From positions 8,612-40,611 of the forward strand of contig CAKTQP010000015.1 of NCBI GenBank assembly GCA_934597165.1: 32,000 nucleotides of DNA. The letters run 5' to 3'. This stretch comes from an uncultured Oscillospiraceae bacterium. GTDB taxonomy: Bacteria > Bacillota > Clostridia > Oscillospirales > Oscillospiraceae. The notes below the pieces were generated by a model. That model did not search any database. It was not told where the DNA came from and saw only the letters and a program-made list of their open reading frames with translations. This document shows, in pieces, positions 565 to 6,668 of the stretch (the first letter of the stretch is position 1; the number at the start of each line of letters is the position of its first letter). A program made the translations under genes and the position numbers.

Positions 565-2331
565 ATGCCGTTGGATGCTGCTTGCTTAGCGGGCATTGTG
601 CAGGAGTGCCGTCCGGCTGTGGAGGGCGCTCGTGTGGATAAGATCTTTCAGCCTGCCCGGGATGAAATTGTGATGCTCCTCCGGGGCAATCAGGGCAACT
701 GCAAGCTGCTGCTCACCGCCAACCCCTCCCATCCCAGACTCCAACTCACCGAAGGGAACCGAGAGAACCCGGCCAACCCGCCTATGTTCTGTATGCTCCT
801 GCGCAAGTATCTGTCCGGCGCACGAGTCATCGCCATGCGGCAGCCGTCTATGGAGCGGATGGTGGATATGGAATTGGAGACCACCAACGAGATGGGGGAC
901 AAGGTGCCCTGTCATCTGATTTTGGAAGCCATGGGACGCCGTGCCAACCTGATCCTGACCGACCAGGAGGGACGCATTGTGGACTGCCTCCGGCGCATCG
1001 ACGGGGACTTGTCCCAGCTCCGTCCTGTCCTGCCGGGGATGTTCTACCGGCAGCCGCCCCAGAGCGAGGGGAAATACGACCCGCTGACGGTGGAGGCCGG
1101 CCAGCTGAAGGAACTGCTGCGCCAGGCGCCGGAGGAACAGGAGCTGACCCAGTGGATTTTGGATCACTTCATCGGCCTGTCCCCGCTGCTCTGCCGGGAG
1201 GTGGTCTACCGCGCCACCGGCGGGGTGGACGCCCGGTTCTGCACCCTGCGGGAAGGGCAGTTGGAGCGGTTTGCCGACCGGTTTTTGTACCTGTGCCAGA
1301 CCATCCGTTCGGGCAGCTTCCAGCCGGTGGCGCTGTATCAGGCGGAAAAGCCCAAGGACTTTTCCTTCCTGCCCTTGGGACAGTACGAGCGGCTCTATGA
1401 GGTGCGGGAATTTGCCACCTTCGGCCAGATGCTGGACGCTTTTTATGGCGACCGGGAACGGCAGGAGCGGGTGCGCCAGAAGGGGCAGGAGCTGCTCAAG
1501 ACCCTGAACAACGCACGAGACCGAGCGGCGCGAAAGATTCGGGTGCAGACCAAGGAATTGGCAGCCACCGAGGGACGCGAGCACTGGCGGGAGCTGGGGG
1601 ACATCATCACCTCCAACCTGTACCAGATGGAACGGGGGATGAAGAGCCTCCACGCGGTGAACTACTACGACCCGGAGGGGAAGGAGATCGACATCCCTCT
1701 GGATCCGCTGCTGACACCTCAGAAGAACGCCGCCAAATACTATAAAAAGTACAACAAGGCCAAGACCGCCAGCGTCATGCTGGCGCAGCAGCTGAAAAAG
1801 GGACAGCGGGAGCTGGAATACCTGGAGAGCGTGCTGGAGACCGTCCAGCGGGCAGAAGGGGAACGTGACCTGGCTGAAATCCGTCAGGAGCTGGAGGAGA
1901 GCGGTTATCTGCGGGCGAAAAAGACCGGCAAGAAGCAGAAAAAAGCCCCCACCTCCAAGCCTCTGGAGTTCCGCAGCTCCGCCGGTCTGCGCATCTCGGT
2001 GGGGCGCAACCACTACCAGAACGACGCCCTCACCTGCCGCCAGGCGTACAAGAGCGACATTTGGCTCCACACCCAGAAGATCCACGGCGCCCACGTCATC
2101 CTGTGGGCCCAGGGACAGGAGCCGGACGCCCAGAGCCTCACCGAAGCGGCCATGCTGGCGGCCTACTACTCCCAGGCCAAAGACGGCAAGAATGTGCCGG
2201 TGGACTACACGCCGGTGAAGTACGTCCACAAGCCCAACGGCGCTCGGCCGGGGATGGTTATCTACACCACCTACCAGACTGCCTATGTAACGCCGGATGA
2301 GGCGTTGGTGAAGCGATTGAAAGTGAAATGA
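565..2331 (+). CDS. rqcH: Rqc2-homolog RqcH / fibronectin-binding protein A (NFACT family)
   Basis: The track ORF 382..2331 is trimmed to ATG 565, which follows GAAGGAGGGG. The protein is 588 aa with an NFACT-N start MPLDAACL...VDKIFQP..DEIVMLLRG, a coiled-coil middle, and a C-terminal NFACT-R-like region (DIWLHTQKIHGAHVIL). Confidence 0.85.
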   Translation: MPLDAACLAGIVQECRPAVEGARVDKIFQPARDEIVMLLRGNQGNCKLLLTANPSHPRLQLTEGNRENPANPPMFCMLLRKYLSGARVIAMRQPSMERMVDMELETTNEMGDKVPCHLILEAMGRRANLILTDQEGRIVDCLRRIDGDLSQLRPVLPGMFYRQPPQSEGKYDPLTVEAGQLKELLRQAPEEQELTQWILDHFIGLSPLLCREVVYRATGGVDARFCTLREGQLERFADRFLYLCQTIRSGSFQPVALYQAEKPKDFSFLPLGQYERLYEVREFATFGQMLDAFYGDRERQERVRQKGQELLKTLNNARDRAARKIRVQTKELAATEGREHWRELGDIITSNLYQMERGMKSLHAVNYYDPEGKEIDIPLDPLLTPQKNAAKYYKKYNKAKTASVMLAQQLKKGQRELEYLESVLETVQRAEGERDLAEIRQELEESGYLRAKKTGKKQKKAPTSKPLEFRSSAGLRISVGRNHYQNDALTCRQAYKSDIWLHTQKIHGAHVILWAQGQEPDAQSLTEAAMLAAYYSQAKDGKNVPVDYTPVKYVHKPNGARPGMVIYTTYQTAYVTPDEALVKRLKVK

Positions 2332-2334
2332 AGC

Positions 2335-2366
2335 AAAAAGCCAGCATCCTAGGATGCTGGCTTTTG
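2335..2366. terminator. Bidirectional intrinsic terminator between rqcH and the convergent HTH gene
   Basis: Perfect palindrome GCCAGCATCC-TA-GGATGCTGGC flanked by AAAAA upstream and TTTT downstream. Confidence 0.75.
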
Positions 2367-2729
2367 TTATCCTTCCGACGGGTGCACGCCCCGCAGCAGC
2401 TCTTCCGCGGAGACGCCATAGAGCTTGGCCAGCGCCAGCAGGTTGGAGGTGCTGGGGTCGGAGGCGCCGGACTCCCACTTAGAGACCGCCTGGCGGCTGA
2501 CGCCCAGGGTTTCTGCCACGAACTCCTGGGTCATCTGACAGCGGAGCCGTTCCTCTTTGAGGGTCTCTCCCAGGGTCTTGGCCAGCTGGGATTTCTCCTT
2601 CCGCACCTCGCCGGAGCGCAGGTACTTGCGCAGGGCTTTGATGAGGAGGACGACCAGGTAGACGGTCAGGACGAACCCGGCCAGGCTGACCAAGAGGGTG
2701 GGGATGAGTATCAGGGTGTTTGTCATCAT
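2367..2729 (-). CDS. XRE-family HTH protein with N-terminal transmembrane anchor (paralog 1)
   Basis: The track ORF 2367..2873 is trimmed to ATG at 2729, which follows AAAGGAGG. The 120-aa protein has a hydrophobic N-terminus (LILIPTLLVSLAGFVLTVYLVVLLI), then the basic stretch KALRKYLRSGEVRKEK, then an HTH_3-type domain (MTQEFVAETLGVSRQAVSKWESG). Confidence 0.8.
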   Translation of the reverse strand: MMTNTLILIPTLLVSLAGFVLTVYLVVLLIKALRKYLRSGEVRKEKSQLAKTLGETLKEERLRCQMTQEFVAETLGVSRQAVSKWESGASDPSTSNLLALAKLYGVSAEELLRGVHPSEG

Positions 2730-2754
2730 AAGAGCACCCCTCCTTTCTGGGACG

Positions 2755-2783
2755 AGCATAGCAAAATCCGCCGGTTGCCACAA
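2755..2783 (-). promoter_or_regulatory. Candidate sigma-A promoter of HTH paralog 1 (TTGTGG-17-TGcTATGCT)
   Basis: Read on the minus strand: -35 TTGTGG (2778-2783), 17-nt spacer, extended -10 TGCTATGCT (2755-2763). The same geometry is seen at 5800-5828. Confidence 0.4.
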
Positions 2784-2809
2784 GCAACTATTCCGCAACA
2801 TGGGGTTGC
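2774..2809. promoter_or_regulatory. Operator-like array GTTGC-N5-GCAAC-N6-GCAAC-N5-GTTGC (copy A)
   Basis: Pentamers start at 2774, 2784, 2795 and 2805, giving 10/11/10-nt phasing. The array overlaps the minus-strand -35. A near-identical block lies at 5819-5854. Confidence 0.5.
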
Positions 2810-2829
2810 AGGGGAAAATGTGCTGGCGC

Positions 2830-2858
2830 TTGACAGGGGAAAGCGCTGTTACTATAAT
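2830..2858 (+). promoter_or_regulatory. Consensus sigma-A promoter for the 2943-4783 operon
   Basis: TTGACA (2830-2835), 17-nt spacer, TATAAT (2853-2858). Confidence 0.65.
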
Positions 2859-2942
2859 GAAAGCGGTCATCAAGCTGCAAGAGGCAGCTTTTTCTAGCTA
2901 CGACAGTTAGGAGCGGCTAACCACAGGAAAGGAGGATGTAAT

Positions 2943-3434
2943 ATGATCGGTTGGGTGTTGTTGGAAGGACTTGGACTTGGCGTTCTGCTGGTCTTGGTCT
3001 GTGTGTTTGGCATCCGCAAGGGTGCCGTGGGGATGGTGCATCTGTATCACACGGAGGTGCAGGAACGCTGTGTGGCGCTGGGGCTGACCAAGCAGGAGGC
3101 CATCCAGCGGAACAGCCTCCGCTTCAAGCTCTGCTGTGTGCCTGGTTACATCATCTATGTGCTGGTCTTTGTCTACGCCGTCAATGGGGCGCGGGGGTTT
3201 GGCACCGGCTTTTGGCAGCTGTTCGGTATCCTCTTCGTCATGAACCTCATCGACCGCTTTTTCGTGGACGGCTGGTGGGTGGGGCACACAAAGGCGTGGG
3301 TCATCCCCGGCACAGAGGATCTCCGGCCGTACATCACCGCCCAGGACAAGAAACGCAAGTGGCTGGCCGGCACCGTGGGCATGGCGGTCATCGCCGCTAT
3401 CCTGGCCGGGGTCATGGCGCTGCTCCTGCCGTAA
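2943..3434 (+). CDS. Hypothetical integral membrane protein (about 4 TM segments)
   Basis: 163 aa, with RBS GGAAAGGAGG 7 nt upstream. Hydrophobic segments are visible at the N-terminus, in the middle (twice) and at the C-terminus. I recognise no family. Confidence 0.7.
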   Translation: MIGWVLLEGLGLGVLLVLVCVFGIRKGAVGMVHLYHTEVQERCVALGLTKQEAIQRNSLRFKLCCVPGYIIYVLVFVYAVNGARGFGTGFWQLFGILFVMNLIDRFFVDGWWVGHTKAWVIPGTEDLRPYITAQDKKRKWLAGTVGMAVIAAILAGVMALLLP

Positions 3435-3449
3435 AAAGGAGGGAACAGG

Positions 3450-4064
3450 ATGAAAGTCAACACGTTGGATGCGTCCGCTATCAACGACATCGGCCACGCC
3501 TTTGGCTACTACGACTACGGGGAAGAGACCGGCCTGTTCTCGGTGTTCTCCAGTCAGGAGGCGGTGGCCACCTACATCCGCGGCTATGTCCGTGGGATGC
3601 TGGCAGGCGGGCTGCTCTACACCAACAGCCAACAGGGCGAGGGCTACATCGCCTATCAGCTGCCCGGCCAGAAGATCGGATTGAAAGCGGGTCTGCCCCT
3701 GCTGAAGGGGCTGTTCCGGGCCATGGGTCTGAAGGAGATCGTCCGGTTTTGCCAAGTGATGAAGCGGGGCGGTTCGGGACTGAAAGACCGGCTGAATAAG
3801 AAAAAGCAGCCCTATGTGTTTGTGGGGCTGGTGTGCGTGCGGGAGGCGTACCAGGGGCAGGGGCATATGCGCCAGGTCATGGAGCTGGCCTTTGCAGAGG
3901 GGCAGCGGCTGGGTGTGCCAGTGATTTTGGAGACGGATGCCCGCTCCAAATGCGACAAGTATCTGCACCTTGGCATGGAGCTGGTCGGCACCCGCGACTT
4001 AGGGGCGTATGGCACCCTGTACGACCTCATCAAATACCCAAAGAAGGAGGGGGGAGCGCGATGA
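3450..4064 (+). CDS. GNAT-family N-acetyltransferase
   Basis: 204 aa, RBS AAAAGGAGGG. The acetyl-CoA motif-A-like stretch is VCVREAYQGQGHMRQVMELAF, followed by the C-terminal LETD....KYLHLGMELV pattern. Confidence 0.8.
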   Translation: MKVNTLDASAINDIGHAFGYYDYGEETGLFSVFSSQEAVATYIRGYVRGMLAGGLLYTNSQQGEGYIAYQLPGQKIGLKAGLPLLKGLFRAMGLKEIVRFCQVMKRGGSGLKDRLNKKKQPYVFVGLVCVREAYQGQGHMRQVMELAFAEGQRLGVPVILETDARSKCDKYLHLGMELVGTRDLGAYGTLYDLIKYPKKEGGAR

Positions 4065-4783
4065 ATAAGAACAAACGCAGATTACTGCTAGGAATATGCG
4101 GTTGCCTGCTCTACGTGGTCGGCGATTTTCTCTTTGCCGCACTGGGGCCGGAGCAGAGCACGGAGACCATGGGGCTGATGGTGCAAGTGGCGTATCTGGA
4201 CATGGCCACCTGGCGTTTCGTGGTCAGCATCCTCTGCGGTGTGCTGGGGACGGCACTGTATTACGTGGGCTTTCACCAGATGGAACAGCTGCTGCGGCTG
4301 CATCTCCCGGCGCATCAGCAGAAGTGGCGCAAGGGCTTTCGCATCGCCTATCTGACCGGCACGGTGTGCTGGGGTTACGTCCATGCCATGTTTATGAATG
4401 TGGCGCTGATCTTCCAGTTCGTCTATCGGGCTTACGGCGATATGCAGACCGCGGCAGACATCGCCAACCGCATCGTCTACTGCAACGCGGTGCCCATGGT
4501 GGCGGCCTACGTCCTGGGAGATGTGGTCTTGTCGGCGGTCATGGTGGTGATGATCTGGAAGGGACTGCTGCCGCTGAAACATACCGCCCAGCGGGTGCTG
4601 GCCACCCTCTGCAACCCCATATGCTGTGCCGGCATCCTGGGCAACCTCACCACCCTGCTGCCCTGGCCGCTGAATCAGATCGACCACGGCACGGAGTCCT
4701 TGGGGCATGCGTTGGTGCTGGTGTTGGGACTGATCCTGCTGCGGGAGATGTCCAAACAGTCGGGCAAGAACCTTGCGGCTTGA
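4061..4783 (+). CDS. Hypothetical multi-pass membrane protein
   Basis: The track ORF 3833..4783 is trimmed to ATG 4061, which overlaps the GNAT stop (ATGA). The 240-aa protein starts MNKNKRRLLLGICGCLLYVVGDFLF and has repeated hydrophobic helices. Confidence 0.75.
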   Translation: MNKNKRRLLLGICGCLLYVVGDFLFAALGPEQSTETMGLMVQVAYLDMATWRFVVSILCGVLGTALYYVGFHQMEQLLRLHLPAHQQKWRKGFRIAYLTGTVCWGYVHAMFMNVALIFQFVYRAYGDMQTAADIANRIVYCNAVPMVAAYVLGDVVLSAVMVVMIWKGLLPLKHTAQRVLATLCNPICCAGILGNLTTLLPWPLNQIDHGTESLGHALVLVLGLILLREMSKQSGKNLAA

Positions 4784-4793
4784 TCGTAAAAAT

Positions 4794-4827
4794 CCCCGTT
4801 TCCGCTCTCAGGAAACGGGGGTTTTTT
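4794..4827. terminator. Bidirectional intrinsic terminator
   Basis: CCCCGTTTCC-GCTCTCA-GGAAACGGGG followed by GTTTTTT. The T-run overlaps the stop codon of the convergent HTH gene. Confidence 0.8.
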
Positions 4828-5185
4828 AGGATTCCACGCAGCGCAGCAGCTCCTCCGCAGAGACACCGTAGAGCTTGGCCAGCGCCAGCAGGTTGGAGGT
4901 GCTGGGGTCGGACGCGCCGGATTCCCATTTGGACACCGCCTGACGGCTGACGCCCAGAGATTCCGCCACAAACTCCTGGGTCATCTTGCATCGGGCACGC
5001 TCCTGCTTCAACGCCTCGCCCAGGGTCTTGGCCGTCTCTGCCTTCTCCTTGCGGATGGGGGCGGAGTGGAGGTATTTGCGCAGGGCTTTGATGAGCAGCA
5101 CGATAAGGTAGATGATCAGGCCGAAGAAGGCGATGTTGATGAGGAGGACCACTGCAAAGGTGGCAAACGTAAAGGTCATGGCCAT
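4826..5185 (-). CDS. XRE-family HTH protein with N-terminal transmembrane anchor (paralog 2)
   Basis: 119 aa. The hydrophobic N-terminus (FATFAVVLLINIAFFGLIIYLIVLLI) is followed by KALRKYLHSAPIRKEK and an HTH_3 domain. The stretch VSRQAVSKWESGASDPSTSNLLALAKLYGVSAEELL is identical to paralog 1. Confidence 0.8.
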   Translation of the reverse strand: MAMTFTFATFAVVLLINIAFFGLIIYLIVLLIKALRKYLHSAPIRKEKAETAKTLGEALKQERARCKMTQEFVAESLGVSRQAVSKWESGASDPSTSNLLALAKLYGVSAEELLRCVES

Positions 5186-5203
5186 GGTCGAGATTCCTTT
5201 GGG

Positions 5204-5737
5204 TTATTGTTTGTCTTTGGGCAGGTCGTCTGAGGCGGTGAAGTGGATGCCGCCGTCGGCATCCAGGGCATAGCTCAGGGTGTGGGTGTAGGCGTCCAGG
5301 GTCAGAGAGGTGTCCGTCCGATCGGTCTCATGGAGCAGATGGAAGGTCACCGTCCCGTTGCCTTGGTAGGTCAGCTCCGGATCCTCTGCCGGAAAGGCTT
5401 GGGTGGCGACGACCTGTTTGTTCCCGTCTGCATCCACAAAGGCGGCATAGGTACACGGTTCGTCCAGGTCATCCTGGTCGTCGGTGAAGAGCACCACACC
5501 TGCCAGACCATAGGCTCCGTCCGGCGCAGCGACACAGTCCAGCACCGTCCAGTGGGCTTTGTCCGAGTTGTCGAGGAACAGGGCACGCACCTCCGATGCC
5601 GTCCACTCCTTCTGGGTGGAGGTGGTGGAGCTGGTCTGGGCGGGGGTGGAGAGGATAGCGGGAGCGTCCTGGCTGCCGCAGCCGGTCAGGGAGAGCAGCA
5701 GGGTCAAACTAAGTAAGATGGAATAAAATTTTTTCAT
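5204..5737 (-). CDS. Lipoprotein of unknown function
   Basis: The track ORF 5204..5809 is trimmed to ATG 5737, which follows GAGGTGA. The signal peptide MKKFYSILLSLTLLLSLTGC carries the lipobox LTGC, followed by a Ser/Thr-rich linker. It lies 18 nt upstream of HTH paralog 2 on the same strand. Confidence 0.8.
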   Translation of the reverse strand: MKKFYSILLSLTLLLSLTGCGSQDAPAILSTPAQTSSTTSTQKEWTASEVRALFLDNSDKAHWTVLDCVAAPDGAYGLAGVVLFTDDQDDLDEPCTYAAFVDADGNKQVVATQAFPAEDPELTYQGNGTVTFHLLHETDRTDTSLTLDAYTHTLSYALDADGGIHFTASDDLPKDKQ

Positions 5738-5799
5738 CTGGATCACCTCAAAGATCGAATAGGGGCTGCCTGCCGGAGCAGGGGGCTGATGACGAGGCA

Positions 5800-5828
5800 A
5801 TGATAGCATGACCGAGCGGTTGCGGCAA
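5800..5828 (-). promoter_or_regulatory. Candidate sigma-A promoter of the lipoprotein-HTH2 operon (TTGCCG-17-TGcTATCAT)
   Basis: Read on the minus strand: -35 TTGCCG (5823-5828), 17-nt spacer, extended -10 TGCTATCAT (5800-5808). The geometry matches 2755-2783. Confidence 0.4.
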
Positions 5829-5854
5829 GCAACTATGCCGCAACAATGGGTTGC
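5819..5854. promoter_or_regulatory. Operator-like array GTTGC-N5-GCAAC-N6-GCAAC-N5-GTTGC (copy B)
   Basis: Pentamers start at 5819, 5829, 5840 and 5850, with the same 10/11/10 phasing and the same 14-nt offset from the -10 as copy A. Confidence 0.5.
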
Positions 5855-5888
5855 AAAGGGAAAAATGCGGGTTTTTGGGCTGTTTTTG

Positions 5889-6668
5889 TTACGCAGTCTT
5901 GCCGAAGATGTTCAGCAGGATGAGCACGAAGGCGAAGATGAGCAAGCAGACGCCCACCGCCTTGTTGAGCTTTTTCAGGGAGGCGTTGTTGGCGAAGACG
6001 GCGGAGACCTCGGCGGCGATGAGGGTGGTGGCGATGCAGAGGAGCATGACCCACAGGTCGGGCTTGGCGCCCAGGGCGAAGTGGGAGACCGCGCCGAAGA
6101 GAGCGGTGAAGGACATGATGAACACACTGGTGCCGATGGCGGTCTTCAGCTCAAAGCCCAGCACCAGGGTCAGCACCAGCAGCATCATGGCGCCGCCGCC
6201 CACGCCTACGAAGCCGCAGATAAAGCCGATGATGGCGCCGAAGAAGATGGACTTGACGGCGCGCTGGGCGAAGGGAGTGTTGGCCATCTCGGTCTTGGAG
6301 GTCATGACCGGCCAGATGATGAATTTCAGGCCGATGGTGCAGACCATGAAGATGGCAAAGTATTTCACGATGGTGTTGGGGGCAAACTGCCCGACGTAAC
6401 TGCCCACCAGGGTGAAGACCAGGATGGACAGGAGGAGTACCACGCCGTTTTTCACGTCCAGGTTCTTCCGCTTGGCGTACGTCCAGGCGGAGATGGCGGA
6501 GGCGAGCACGTCGGAAGCCAGCGCGATGGTGACGGCCTCGTAGGCAGGCATATCGCAGAAGGTCATCAGTGCCGGTGCGATGATGAGGGCAGCGGAGAGG
6601 CCAGCGAGACCGGTGCCGATGCCAGCTCCGATCCCGGAGAGGATGGAGACGAGGATGGTGAGGAACAT
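5889..6668 (-). CDS. TauE/SafE-family sulfite/anion exporter (TSUP)
   Basis: The track ORF 5889..6800 is trimmed to ATG 6668, which follows AAAGGAG. The 259-aa protein is very hydrophobic, with the glycine-rich motifs GIGAGIGTGLAGLS and GFVGVGGGAMM typical of TSUP proteins. Confidence 0.85.
   Translation of the reverse strand: MFLTILVSILSGIGAGIGTGLAGLSAALIIAPALMTFCDMPAYEAVTIALASDVLASAISAWTYAKRKNLDVKNGVVLLLSILVFTLVGSYVGQFAPNTIVKYFAIFMVCTIGLKFIIWPVMTSKTEMANTPFAQRAVKSIFFGAIIGFICGFVGVGGGAMMLLVLTLVLGFELKTAIGTSVFIMSFTALFGAVSHFALGAKPDLWVMLLCIATTLIAAEVSAVFANNASLKKLNKAVGVCLLIFAFVLILLNIFGKTA

Follow-up and report, generated by a model that had tools for sequence, protein, structure and literature searches.

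Predicted transmembrane-first XRE/Cro-C1 regulators of gut anaerobes and a helically phased candidate operator at their own promoters

Background

How a transcription factor that is fixed in the membrane finds its DNA on the chromosome is an open question, which has been studied mainly with proteins that carry large sensors, such as ToxR and CadC. It is raised again by a stretch of 32,000 nucleotides (hereafter the window) from an uncultured Oscillospiraceae bacterium (GenBank assembly GCA_934597165.1, contig CAKTQP010000015.1, positions 8,612 to 40,611). Two genes of this window, paralogue 1 and paralogue 2, encode small proteins composed of a hydrophobic N-terminal helix, a short basic connector and a C-terminal helix-turn-helix (HTH) domain of the XRE/Cro-C1 type. 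What could such proteins control, and how could they do so from the membrane? Here we report that they belong to a widespread family, and that a conserved element of evenly spaced pentamers lies upstream of about 90% of its genes. Our reading, to which we give a probability of roughly two in three, is that the proteins are minimal, sensor-less transmembrane (TM) regulators that control their own genes from the membrane through a helically phased operator. The family would reduce the problem to one helix, a short basic connector and one HTH, together with a defined and conserved operator that lends itself to synthesis and mutation.

The proteins and their family

Both proteins begin with an uncharged hydrophobic stretch of about 27-29 residues (best 19-residue Kyte-Doolittle mean of 2.5 in paralogue 1 and 2.9 in paralogue 2), continue with a basic run, KALRKYL(R/H)S...(V/I)RKEK, and carry at the extreme C-terminus an HTH_3 domain, right after which the protein ends. 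The Pfam profile HTH_3 (PF01381, gathering cut-off 23 bits) is matched by both in full, from position 1 to 55. An earlier note on this DNA, made from the sequence alone, had described two coding sequences of about 120 residues with this composition, and coordinates, Pfam scores and hydropathy all agree with that description. Sequence searches of Pfam, NCBIfam and PDB recognized the HTH and left the N-terminal part unmatched. TIGR04561 was considered for the latter and rejected (17.7 bits against a cut-off of 30, in a match that looks composition-driven). A type II antitoxin (HigA, HipB or MqsA) was likewise rejected: the NCBIfam models score far below their cut-offs and cover the HTH only, and no toxin family occurs among the neighbours.

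The layout, which the earlier note had regarded as unusual, turned out to be common. A profile search of 1.84 billion representatives at 50% identity yielded 173 clusters at E ≤ 1e-30, and at least 70 of the best 80 loci, taken from one genome per species, have the TM segment first. Most of the 150 clusters listed span nearly the full query, and the smaller part are long proteins with several HTHs. Very long matches such as P0121 (1002 amino acids, 11 matched stretches), P0160 (4162 amino acids, 23) and P0170 (2332 amino acids, 11) contain numerous HTH_3 repeats in tandem that are close relatives of this HTH. A word-indexed protein search gave at least 8000 matches, of which the best 120 are all 92-158 amino acids long with helix, KALRKYL and HTH in this order. 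The members come from Oscillospiraceae, Lachnospiraceae, Erysipelotrichaceae, Clostridium intestinale, Peptoniphilus, Mogibacterium and Coriobacteriia (Olsenella, Collinsella), and their database name, where there is any, is just "helix-turn-helix transcriptional regulator". Assembly GCA_027494185.1 is an example of a complete genome with the family. One TM-first member with its upstream element lies on a contig binned as Bacteroidota (record titled Alloprevotella sp.); this may be a case of mis-binning or horizontal transfer, as all other matches are from Bacillota or Coriobacteriia. No paper on the family emerged from literature searches for its architecture, the half-sites or the strings of the operator. 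The earlier note had allowed for a common, already characterized family: common it is, being widespread in gut anaerobes, but there is no sign that it has been characterized.

The conservation of the proteins is strongly uneven. Across the family the outer half of the helix is freely variable. In 260 sequences aligned on the Y column of the connector, the consensus is Y-L-x-V-L-L-I-[KR]-A-L-[RK]-K-Y-[LI]-[RK]-S-x-x-V-R-x-E-K, where conservation reaches 80-98% at many positions (in the juxtamembrane part A 90%, L 95%, K 87%, Y 98%, R 90%, E 88% and K 80%). The HTH has 35 invariant columns among 34 diverse members, and these include the whole recognition helix, SRQAVSKWE.

A conserved element upstream of the genes

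The 110 nt before each predicted start were compared in an alignment anchored on GATAGTTGGTGG. Sixty-one loci align to gcAACc.AaAGTTGCGcgATAGTTGGTGG.gg.AaC ... t.tG.TAtaaT, so that the element occurs in 61 of the ~70 family genes of the species-level genomes; the distance from anchor to ATG is 59-73 nt in nearly all loci and greater in a few. The element contains four to five pentamers, GCAAC or GTTGC, which peak relative to the anchor at -28 (GCAAC, 19 loci), -17/-18 (GCAAC, 42 loci), -7 (GTTGC, 40 loci), +4 (GTTGG or GTTGC, 45 loci) and +13/+14 (GCAAC, 39 loci). Their orientations are thus + + - - +, and the four intervals cover 42 bp, or 10.5 bp per step. Because neighbouring pentamers are 10-11 bp apart, all of the sites would face one side of the DNA helix.

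The order of parts is pentamers, extended -10 box, Shine-Dalgarno sequence and ATG. At 32 nt from the anchor, the T.TG.TAtaaT box conforms to the extended -10 of Gram-positive bacteria, and a good -35 is usually lacking. Counted from the -10 box, the proximal pair of pentamers would be centred near -33 and the distal palindrome, GCAAC-N5-GTTGC, near -54. Of the two copies in the window, operator 1 stands before paralogue 1, which forms a monocistronic unit. Operator 2 stands before an operon of two genes in which paralogue 2 comes second; the gene directly behind this operator is a lipoprotein-like one that ends 18 nt before paralogue 2 (Table 1).

Two other identities were tried for the element and rejected. 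An RNA element found no credible match in Rfam: within 2300-6100, at E ≤ 1, nothing fell on the operator, and the two Thr_leader matches (21-22 bits, where the gathering score is 55) lie on the terminator hairpin at 2336-2365 and are almost certainly spurious. A sigma-54 or other alternative promoter misfits, by eye, in the spacing of GG and GC, whereas the box itself fits an extended -10.

Specificity of the element

A 36-column position weight matrix (PWM) of the element recognizes two sites and no more in the window, each on the minus strand and at the head of a transcription unit that contains a paralogue; the next-best score is 1.6. Genome loci totalling 824 kb contain 68 PWM matches, 63 of them upstream of family genes, and shuffled sequence gave 0. 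The remaining five belong to family members that were miscalled or have an intervening gene (L044, L053, L055) and to HTH-first relatives (L075, L078); in L044 the gene between operator and family gene encodes a multi-pass membrane protein.

The exact palindrome GCAAC-N5-GTTGC has 45 occurrences in 0.96 Mb, where 0.75 would be expected. Twenty-nine of these lie within the composite operator, and the 16 outside it, all of which were inspected, are upstream either of a family gene or of an XRE gene with the helix SRQ[AS][VI]S[KR]WE; three of the genes found in this way had not been sought. Membrane XRE proteins that have the HTH first, share this recognition helix and are associated with the same palindrome are encoded in L042, L066, L069, L072, L075-L078, L080, L105, L157 and L185. 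What the element follows is thus the recognition helix and not the architecture, and the TM-first family appears to be a minimal offshoot, in permuted order, of a broader clade of putative membrane XRE autoregulators. HTH-first XRE genes with an SRQxxSxWE helix and the palindrome upstream were noted at L042:6523, L066:11409, L069:1499, L072:5930, L076:5954, L077:5929, L078:5924 and L080:1343; the full-length ones examined have C-terminal TM helices, and the L066 gene is truncated by the end of its locus.

Scanning of metagenomes for GTTGCGNNATAGTTGGTGG gave at least 120 places. A TM-first family gene is the first downstream open reading frame in 81 of those listed, many of which are the same few species repeated, and it starts 49-62 nt after the match in most of the 81 and at most 172 nt after it. 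Three further places listed have HTH-first membrane XRE proteins downstream. Most of the remaining matches score negatively in the flanking operator columns, outside the search pattern, and are therefore chance matches; a few are at contig ends or rearranged. Among viral contigs there were nine matches to the operator pattern, only two of them followed by a family gene, and PADLOC returned HTH-only matches (RmrA, capH, control protein) and none to the neighbouring genes; a phage or defence origin was rejected on these grounds.

Two kinds of altered loci were seen. In L166, L177 and L181 the operator is followed, ~30 nt on, by a ribosome-binding site and the ATG of a protein of ~162 amino acids (MNNMAHAVLRLLEKNKIDYTLAEHPAVF...), with neither a -10 box nor a TM-HTH gene between; a locus whose normal layout is present in L124 and L182 seems here to have been rearranged or to have undergone a deletion. 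In L156, ~37 nt past the operator match, there is a direct fusion to sequence encoding ...AEALGVSRQAVS, an apparent internal deletion that removed helix and connector of a family gene.

Predicted structure and topology

AlphaFold2, which the earlier note had named as a check, was run with a 34-sequence alignment and gave a model with a mean predicted local distance difference test score (pLDDT) of 82, rising to 94 over residues 11-30. In the model, residues 2-38 form one continuous helix, which is followed, past a kink at residue 39, by a long helix from 40 to 64 that includes helix 1 of the HTH; with helices 68-75, 79-87, 94-104 and 108-115, this long helix forms the five-helix Cro/C1 fold. 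Foldseek placed C.BclI first and also returned DdrO, ClgR, P22 c2, ImmR, C.AhdI and C.Esp1396I, with target-normalised TM-scores of 0.46-0.91 for C.BclI, DdrO, ClgR, P22 c2 and ImmR. ImmR and P22 c2 are also the PDB sequence matches of the HTH of paralogue 1.

Among 234 non-identical members of the family, a tail of three residues (median) precedes the helix and contains 0.4 lysines and arginines on average, compared with 4.7 in the 15 residues past the helix. By the positive-inside rule this bias indicates an N-out/C-in orientation, and the protein is therefore predicted to be anchored by a single N-terminal helix, with its HTH in the cytoplasm and almost nothing exposed outside. This bears out the earlier note, which had placed the HTH in the cytoplasm and remarked on the absence of a sensor domain. 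The charge pattern is the reverse of that of a Sec signal peptide, as the n-region has no positive charge and the basic cluster follows the helix. The proteins thus combine a DNA-binding domain and at least one TM region in one polypeptide, as in the definition of transmembrane transcription regulators (TTRs), and their DNA-binding domain is an HTH_3 domain by the definition of that family.

The translation start was rightly placed before the hydrophobic segment by the earlier note. The first in-frame methionine after this segment in paralogue 1 is M66, within the HTH. Between the paralogues the juxtamembrane segment has a nonsynonymous divergence (dN) of 0.09 and a synonymous divergence (dS) of 0.53, values that indicate purifying selection, and it is therefore translated.

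Divergence of the paralogues and genomic context

The earlier note had seen a 44-nt identical run, about 89% DNA identity between the HTH halves and diverged TM halves, and had suggested a recent duplication or gene conversion that preserves DNA specificity. Its observations are accurate: positions 2419-2462 are exactly identical to 4869-4912, the HTH cores agree at 129 of 144 nt (89.6%), and the first ~45 nt of the genes are 43-50% identical. That the two proteins share a DNA specificity is also very probable, with identical recognition helices and near-identical operators at the two units. A recent duplication, however, is not supported. Between the two genes dS amounts to 0.95 for the variable part of the helix, 0.53 for its conserved part with the basic motif, 1.21 for the linker plus helix 1 and 0.50 for the HTH core. 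As the core combines this dS with a dN of 0.01, and the HTH is near-invariant throughout the family, the DNA identity is due mostly to purifying selection; judged by these divergences, the paralogues are not recent copies.

Gene conversion stood only in part. As the recent cause of the 44-nt run it was rejected, since the run is marginal (P ~0.04 by codon permutation) and the HTH core has a dS of 0.50. Mosaic alleles nevertheless demonstrate that the copies do recombine. Public assemblies with the same flanks (a TauE-family gene and the NFACT gene) exist in two forms. The exact protein of paralogue 1 is present on at least 16 contigs, and in the three places shown (L214-L216) the gene order is identical to that of the window. 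The other form (L210-L213, 7888-8400) has a single gene, P0008, and lacks, relative to window positions 2730-5860, a segment of ~3 kb with the lipoprotein-like gene, paralogue 2, and the genes of a DUF6796 protein, a GNAT-like protein and a 163-residue membrane protein. P0008 is a mosaic: its operator resembles operator 2 and its linker that of paralogue 2, while its -10 box, 5' untranslated region, helix, C-terminus and terminator resemble those of paralogue 1. Reciprocal combinations are present in other database alleles. In L032 (~6004, within the upstream 110 nt) a truncated second family copy, ending in ...LMTLLVKALIKYIKSHDVSRK and a stop codon, adjoins an intact gene; tandem copies and their decay therefore occur in other lineages too.

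No conserved neighbour was found when up to four genes on each side were clustered in 69 loci, the commonest cluster, MATE-like, being present in 6 of 69. Genes for envelope proteins are occasionally co-transcribed, namely the lipoprotein-like gene of the window, which matches no Pfam or NCBIfam family, the gene of the multi-pass membrane protein in L044, and that of a signal-anchored protein of ~400 residues encoded downstream in four loci. The coordinates of the features of the window are listed in Table 1. Between the two transcription units lies a divergent three-gene operon, encoding the 163-residue membrane protein without a family, a protein with a weak GNAT match and the DUF6796 protein (1.7e-49). 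It is driven by a perfect sigma-70 promoter, the -35 of which is ~21 bp from the edge of operator 1, and paralogue 1 could influence this operon too.

Table 1. Coordinates of the two paralogues, their candidate control sites and adjoining features in the window
Feature	Position	Strand	Remarks
Paralogue 1, coding sequence	2367-2729	-	120 amino acids, TM then HTH_3; open reading frame and translation
Paralogue 1, predicted TM helix, residues 4-30	2640-2720	-	Kyte-Doolittle and AlphaFold2
Paralogue 1, basic juxtamembrane motif KALRKYLRSGEVRKEK, residues 31-46	2592-2639	-	Family-wide conservation
Paralogue 1, HTH_3, residues 57-111	2397-2561	-	Pfam, 61.6 bits
Paralogue 1, Shine-Dalgarno sequence AAAGGAGGGG	2737-2746	-	Upstream of the annotated ATG
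Paralogue 1, putative extended -10, TTTTGCTATGCT	2755-2766	-	Hexamer TATGCT 2755-2760; fits family consensus
Operator 1 (candidate)	2774-2809	-	GCAAC 2805-2809, GTTGC 2795-2799, GTTGC 2784-2788, GCAAC 2774-2778; PWM 38.2 bits
Paralogue 2, coding sequence	4826-5185	-	119 amino acids, TM then HTH_3
Paralogue 2, predicted TM helix, residues 4-32	5090-5176	-	
Paralogue 2, basic motif KALRKYLHSAPIRKEK	5042-5089	-	
Paralogue 2, HTH_3, residues 59-113	4847-5011	-	Pfam, 64.1 bits
Lipoprotein-like gene (MKKFYSILLSLTLLLSLTGC...), first in operon with paralogue 2	5204-5737	-	177 amino acids; sequence and lipobox; called as a gene in public assemblies
Promoter-like site of the lipoprotein-paralogue 2 operon	5800-5828	-	TTGCCG, 17 nt, TG-TATCAT; hexamer TATCAT 5800-5805; overlaps proximal half of operator 2
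Operator 2 (candidate)	5819-5854	-	GCAAC 5850-5854, GTTGC 5840-5844, GTTGC 5829-5833, GCAAC 5819-5823; PWM 34.4 bits
Terminator hairpin, bidirectional, of paralogue 1 and convergent NFACT gene	2336-2365		13-bp stem, T-runs on both sides
Terminator hairpin downstream of paralogue 2	4794-4820	-	
Sigma-70 promoter of the divergent operon	2830-2858	+	TTGACA-17-TATAAT (12/12)
Divergent three-gene operon	2943-4783	+	

Proposed mechanism and alternatives

The element stands at the promoter of the gene that encodes its recognition helix and is nearly absent elsewhere; it is therefore probably the operator of these proteins, which would be autoregulators. In the mechanism that we propose, the single N-terminal helix would insert N-out/C-in, with a tail of about three residues (median) outside. 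The conserved basic helix (..YLxVLLIKALRKYLRS..VRKEK) would lie at the inner face of the membrane and, past the kink, run into the elongated helix 1 of the cytoplasmic HTH_3 domain. Hanging from the membrane, the HTHs could rotate about the membrane normal and would reach only the membrane-facing side of the DNA, where all pentamers would lie. Several copies would bind the composite operator from the membrane, just upstream of their own promoter. Mixed orientation combined with strict phasing is something that a soluble symmetric dimer does not need, and would be expected of tethered HTHs. The proximal pair would overlap the weak -35 region of the extended -10 promoter, a position that favours repression; negative autoregulation is most likely, although activation at low dose and repression at high dose is also possible. 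Because their recognition helices are identical, the two proteins of the window would be expected to cross-regulate each other, and they may co-assemble. As there is no extracytoplasmic domain, any input would have to originate inside the bilayer or be supplied by other membrane proteins acting as partners.

Several points weigh against this mechanism. Both the HTH and the operator are near-invariant and show no covariation, so that the link between them is an association. The proximal pair, GTTGG-N4/5-GCAAC, is opposite in polarity to the distal palindrome, and one symmetric dimer geometry therefore cannot explain both. No further operator copies that would define a regulon, beside those at XRE genes, were found in the window or in ~0.96 Mb of loci; ~1 Mb of flanking DNA contains no target other than the regulators' own operons, and there is no obvious output. 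The TM assignment is a prediction from hydropathy, charge bias and AlphaFold2, and a literature search found no published data on transcription start sites, binding, localization or phenotype for the family.

A more ambitious version of the proposed mechanism, which we regard as doubtful, makes the protein a self-contained sensor of the state of the bilayer. Monomers would load, indifferent to orientation, on an array of pentamers locked to 10.5 bp, and occupancy and expression would follow the clustering of the helices as influenced by lipid order, thickness, charge or crowding by partners. If true, this would constitute a new operator grammar for membrane-tethered regulators and a 120-residue model of membrane-based transcription factors.

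The dearth of nearby targets would be less puzzling if the helix did no more than keep an inactive regulator at the membrane until, on a signal, a site-2-type protease or FtsH cut it in the helix or close by, because the soluble HTH fragment could roam the chromosome and bind the operator and possibly distant targets. The conservation of the juxtamembrane segment exceeds what a plain anchor needs and could reflect a recognition site for a protease or partner, and the lack of an extracytoplasmic sensor also suits such a scheme. We nevertheless consider it unlikely: no gene for a protease or partner is conserved nearby, the helix-kink-helix connection of the AlphaFold2 model is ~20 residues long and not a long disordered linker, and the phasing of mixed-orientation sites on one face suits a tethered protein and is unneeded by a soluble dimer. 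The rarity of the full operator away from its own gene, the variable genomic context and the occasional co-transcribed envelope genes could instead mean that gene regulation is not the main role and that the protein tethers its locus to the membrane or acts through its helix in the bilayer, for instance by modulating a partner there, with HTH and operator serving merely as dosage feedback. This reading is speculative and distinctly improbable, given that the 69 loci reveal no conserved partner and that the variable half of the helix, being poorly conserved, speaks against a specific interaction inside the membrane.

The absence of covariation, together with the poor canonical -35 in most loci, would also be compatible with an element that belongs to another global regulator, to the promoter of an unusual sigma factor or to a transcribed RNA, the HTH binding other DNA. 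The element, however, tracks the HTH type so closely that it is found upstream of HTH-first relatives with the same recognition helix, it is upstream of a well-placed extended -10 box, Rfam does not match it, and it is absent elsewhere in ~1 Mb, unlike the motif of a global regulator; there is very little chance that it is unconnected with these proteins. Finally, a start codon annotated too early, or a cleaved signal peptide with an exported HTH, is a general possibility with any N-terminal hydrophobic stretch, and here it is hardly credible. In dozens of loci from distant parts of the phylogeny, the Shine-Dalgarno sequence and the ATG keep a fixed distance from the hydrophobic segment that follows them, and M66, the purifying selection on the juxtamembrane codons and the reversed charge pattern speak against it as well. 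Autoregulation from the membrane through a phased operator remains our preferred reading.

Among the dominant anaerobes of the human and animal gut, in which almost no regulators have been characterized, the family is abundant. As the pairing of operator and recognition helix extends to HTH-first membrane XRE proteins, one binding result could annotate many nameless HTH regulators.

Comparison with known systems

In BcrR, RodZ, ToxR and CadC the DNA-binding domain comes first, whereas in the window family the TM segment does. ToxR, CadC and TcpP, all from Proteobacteria, bind promoters while anchored by one helix, with an OmpR-type winged helix first and a periplasmic sensor at the C-terminus. 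RodZ is a single-pass protein whose cytoplasmic N-terminal HTH, of the Cro/C1 type, contacts MreB and which has a periplasmic C-terminal domain; in contrast, the window proteins match no RodZ-type domains and end after the HTH. The target search of CadC from the membrane has been described (PMC7888679).

Among the closest solved folds are the small XRE controller (C) proteins C.BclI, C.AhdI and C.Esp1396I, and one of the matches is the C.Esp1396I tetramer on its natural operator. C proteins are soluble and linked to restriction-modification systems, and two of their dimers bind adjacent sites, palindromes of like polarity, before the C gene, activating and then repressing it. The window protein differs in its predicted membrane anchor and in the mixed orientation of its pentamers, and no restriction-modification genes were found in the window segment or the related loci, so that the likeness is one of fold and functional analogy.

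BcrR, the bacitracin sensor of Enterococcus faecalis, has an N-terminal HTH followed by four TM helices and controls the neighbouring bcrABD transporter operon. It resembles the window proteins as a permanently membrane-bound protein of the XRE type without a large extracytoplasmic domain; they differ from it in their reversed order, their single helix and the lack of a conserved target or transporter operon in the 69 loci. According to work cited in PMC13384398, the membrane part of BcrR is reportedly needed for DNA binding. The same paper describes HigX of Caulobacter crescentus, an alphaproteobacterial protein that has its TM part first, a C-terminal DNA-binding domain and no periplasmic domain, and that needs the TM part for promoter regulation (PMC13384398). 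HigX shares the TM-first order of the window proteins, but it has four TM helices, a LytTR domain and an envelope regulon defined by chromatin immunoprecipitation, and it is not homologous to the HTH_3 proteins described here.

The census of TTRs found HTH to be the commonest DNA-binding domain and 56% of the proteins to be single-pass, with enrichment in Coriobacteriia and a slight one in Firmicutes (Demey et al. 2023, PMC10269533). It consists of counts and describes neither a TM-first HTH_3 family nor the juxtamembrane motif or the operator (PMC10269533). The window family has the same plan of DNA-binding domain and TM region in one polypeptide, and it occurs in the same taxa. Membrane transcription regulators are already known as a class; what is new here is the candidate operator, conserved, helically phased and associated with the genes of its own putative regulators.

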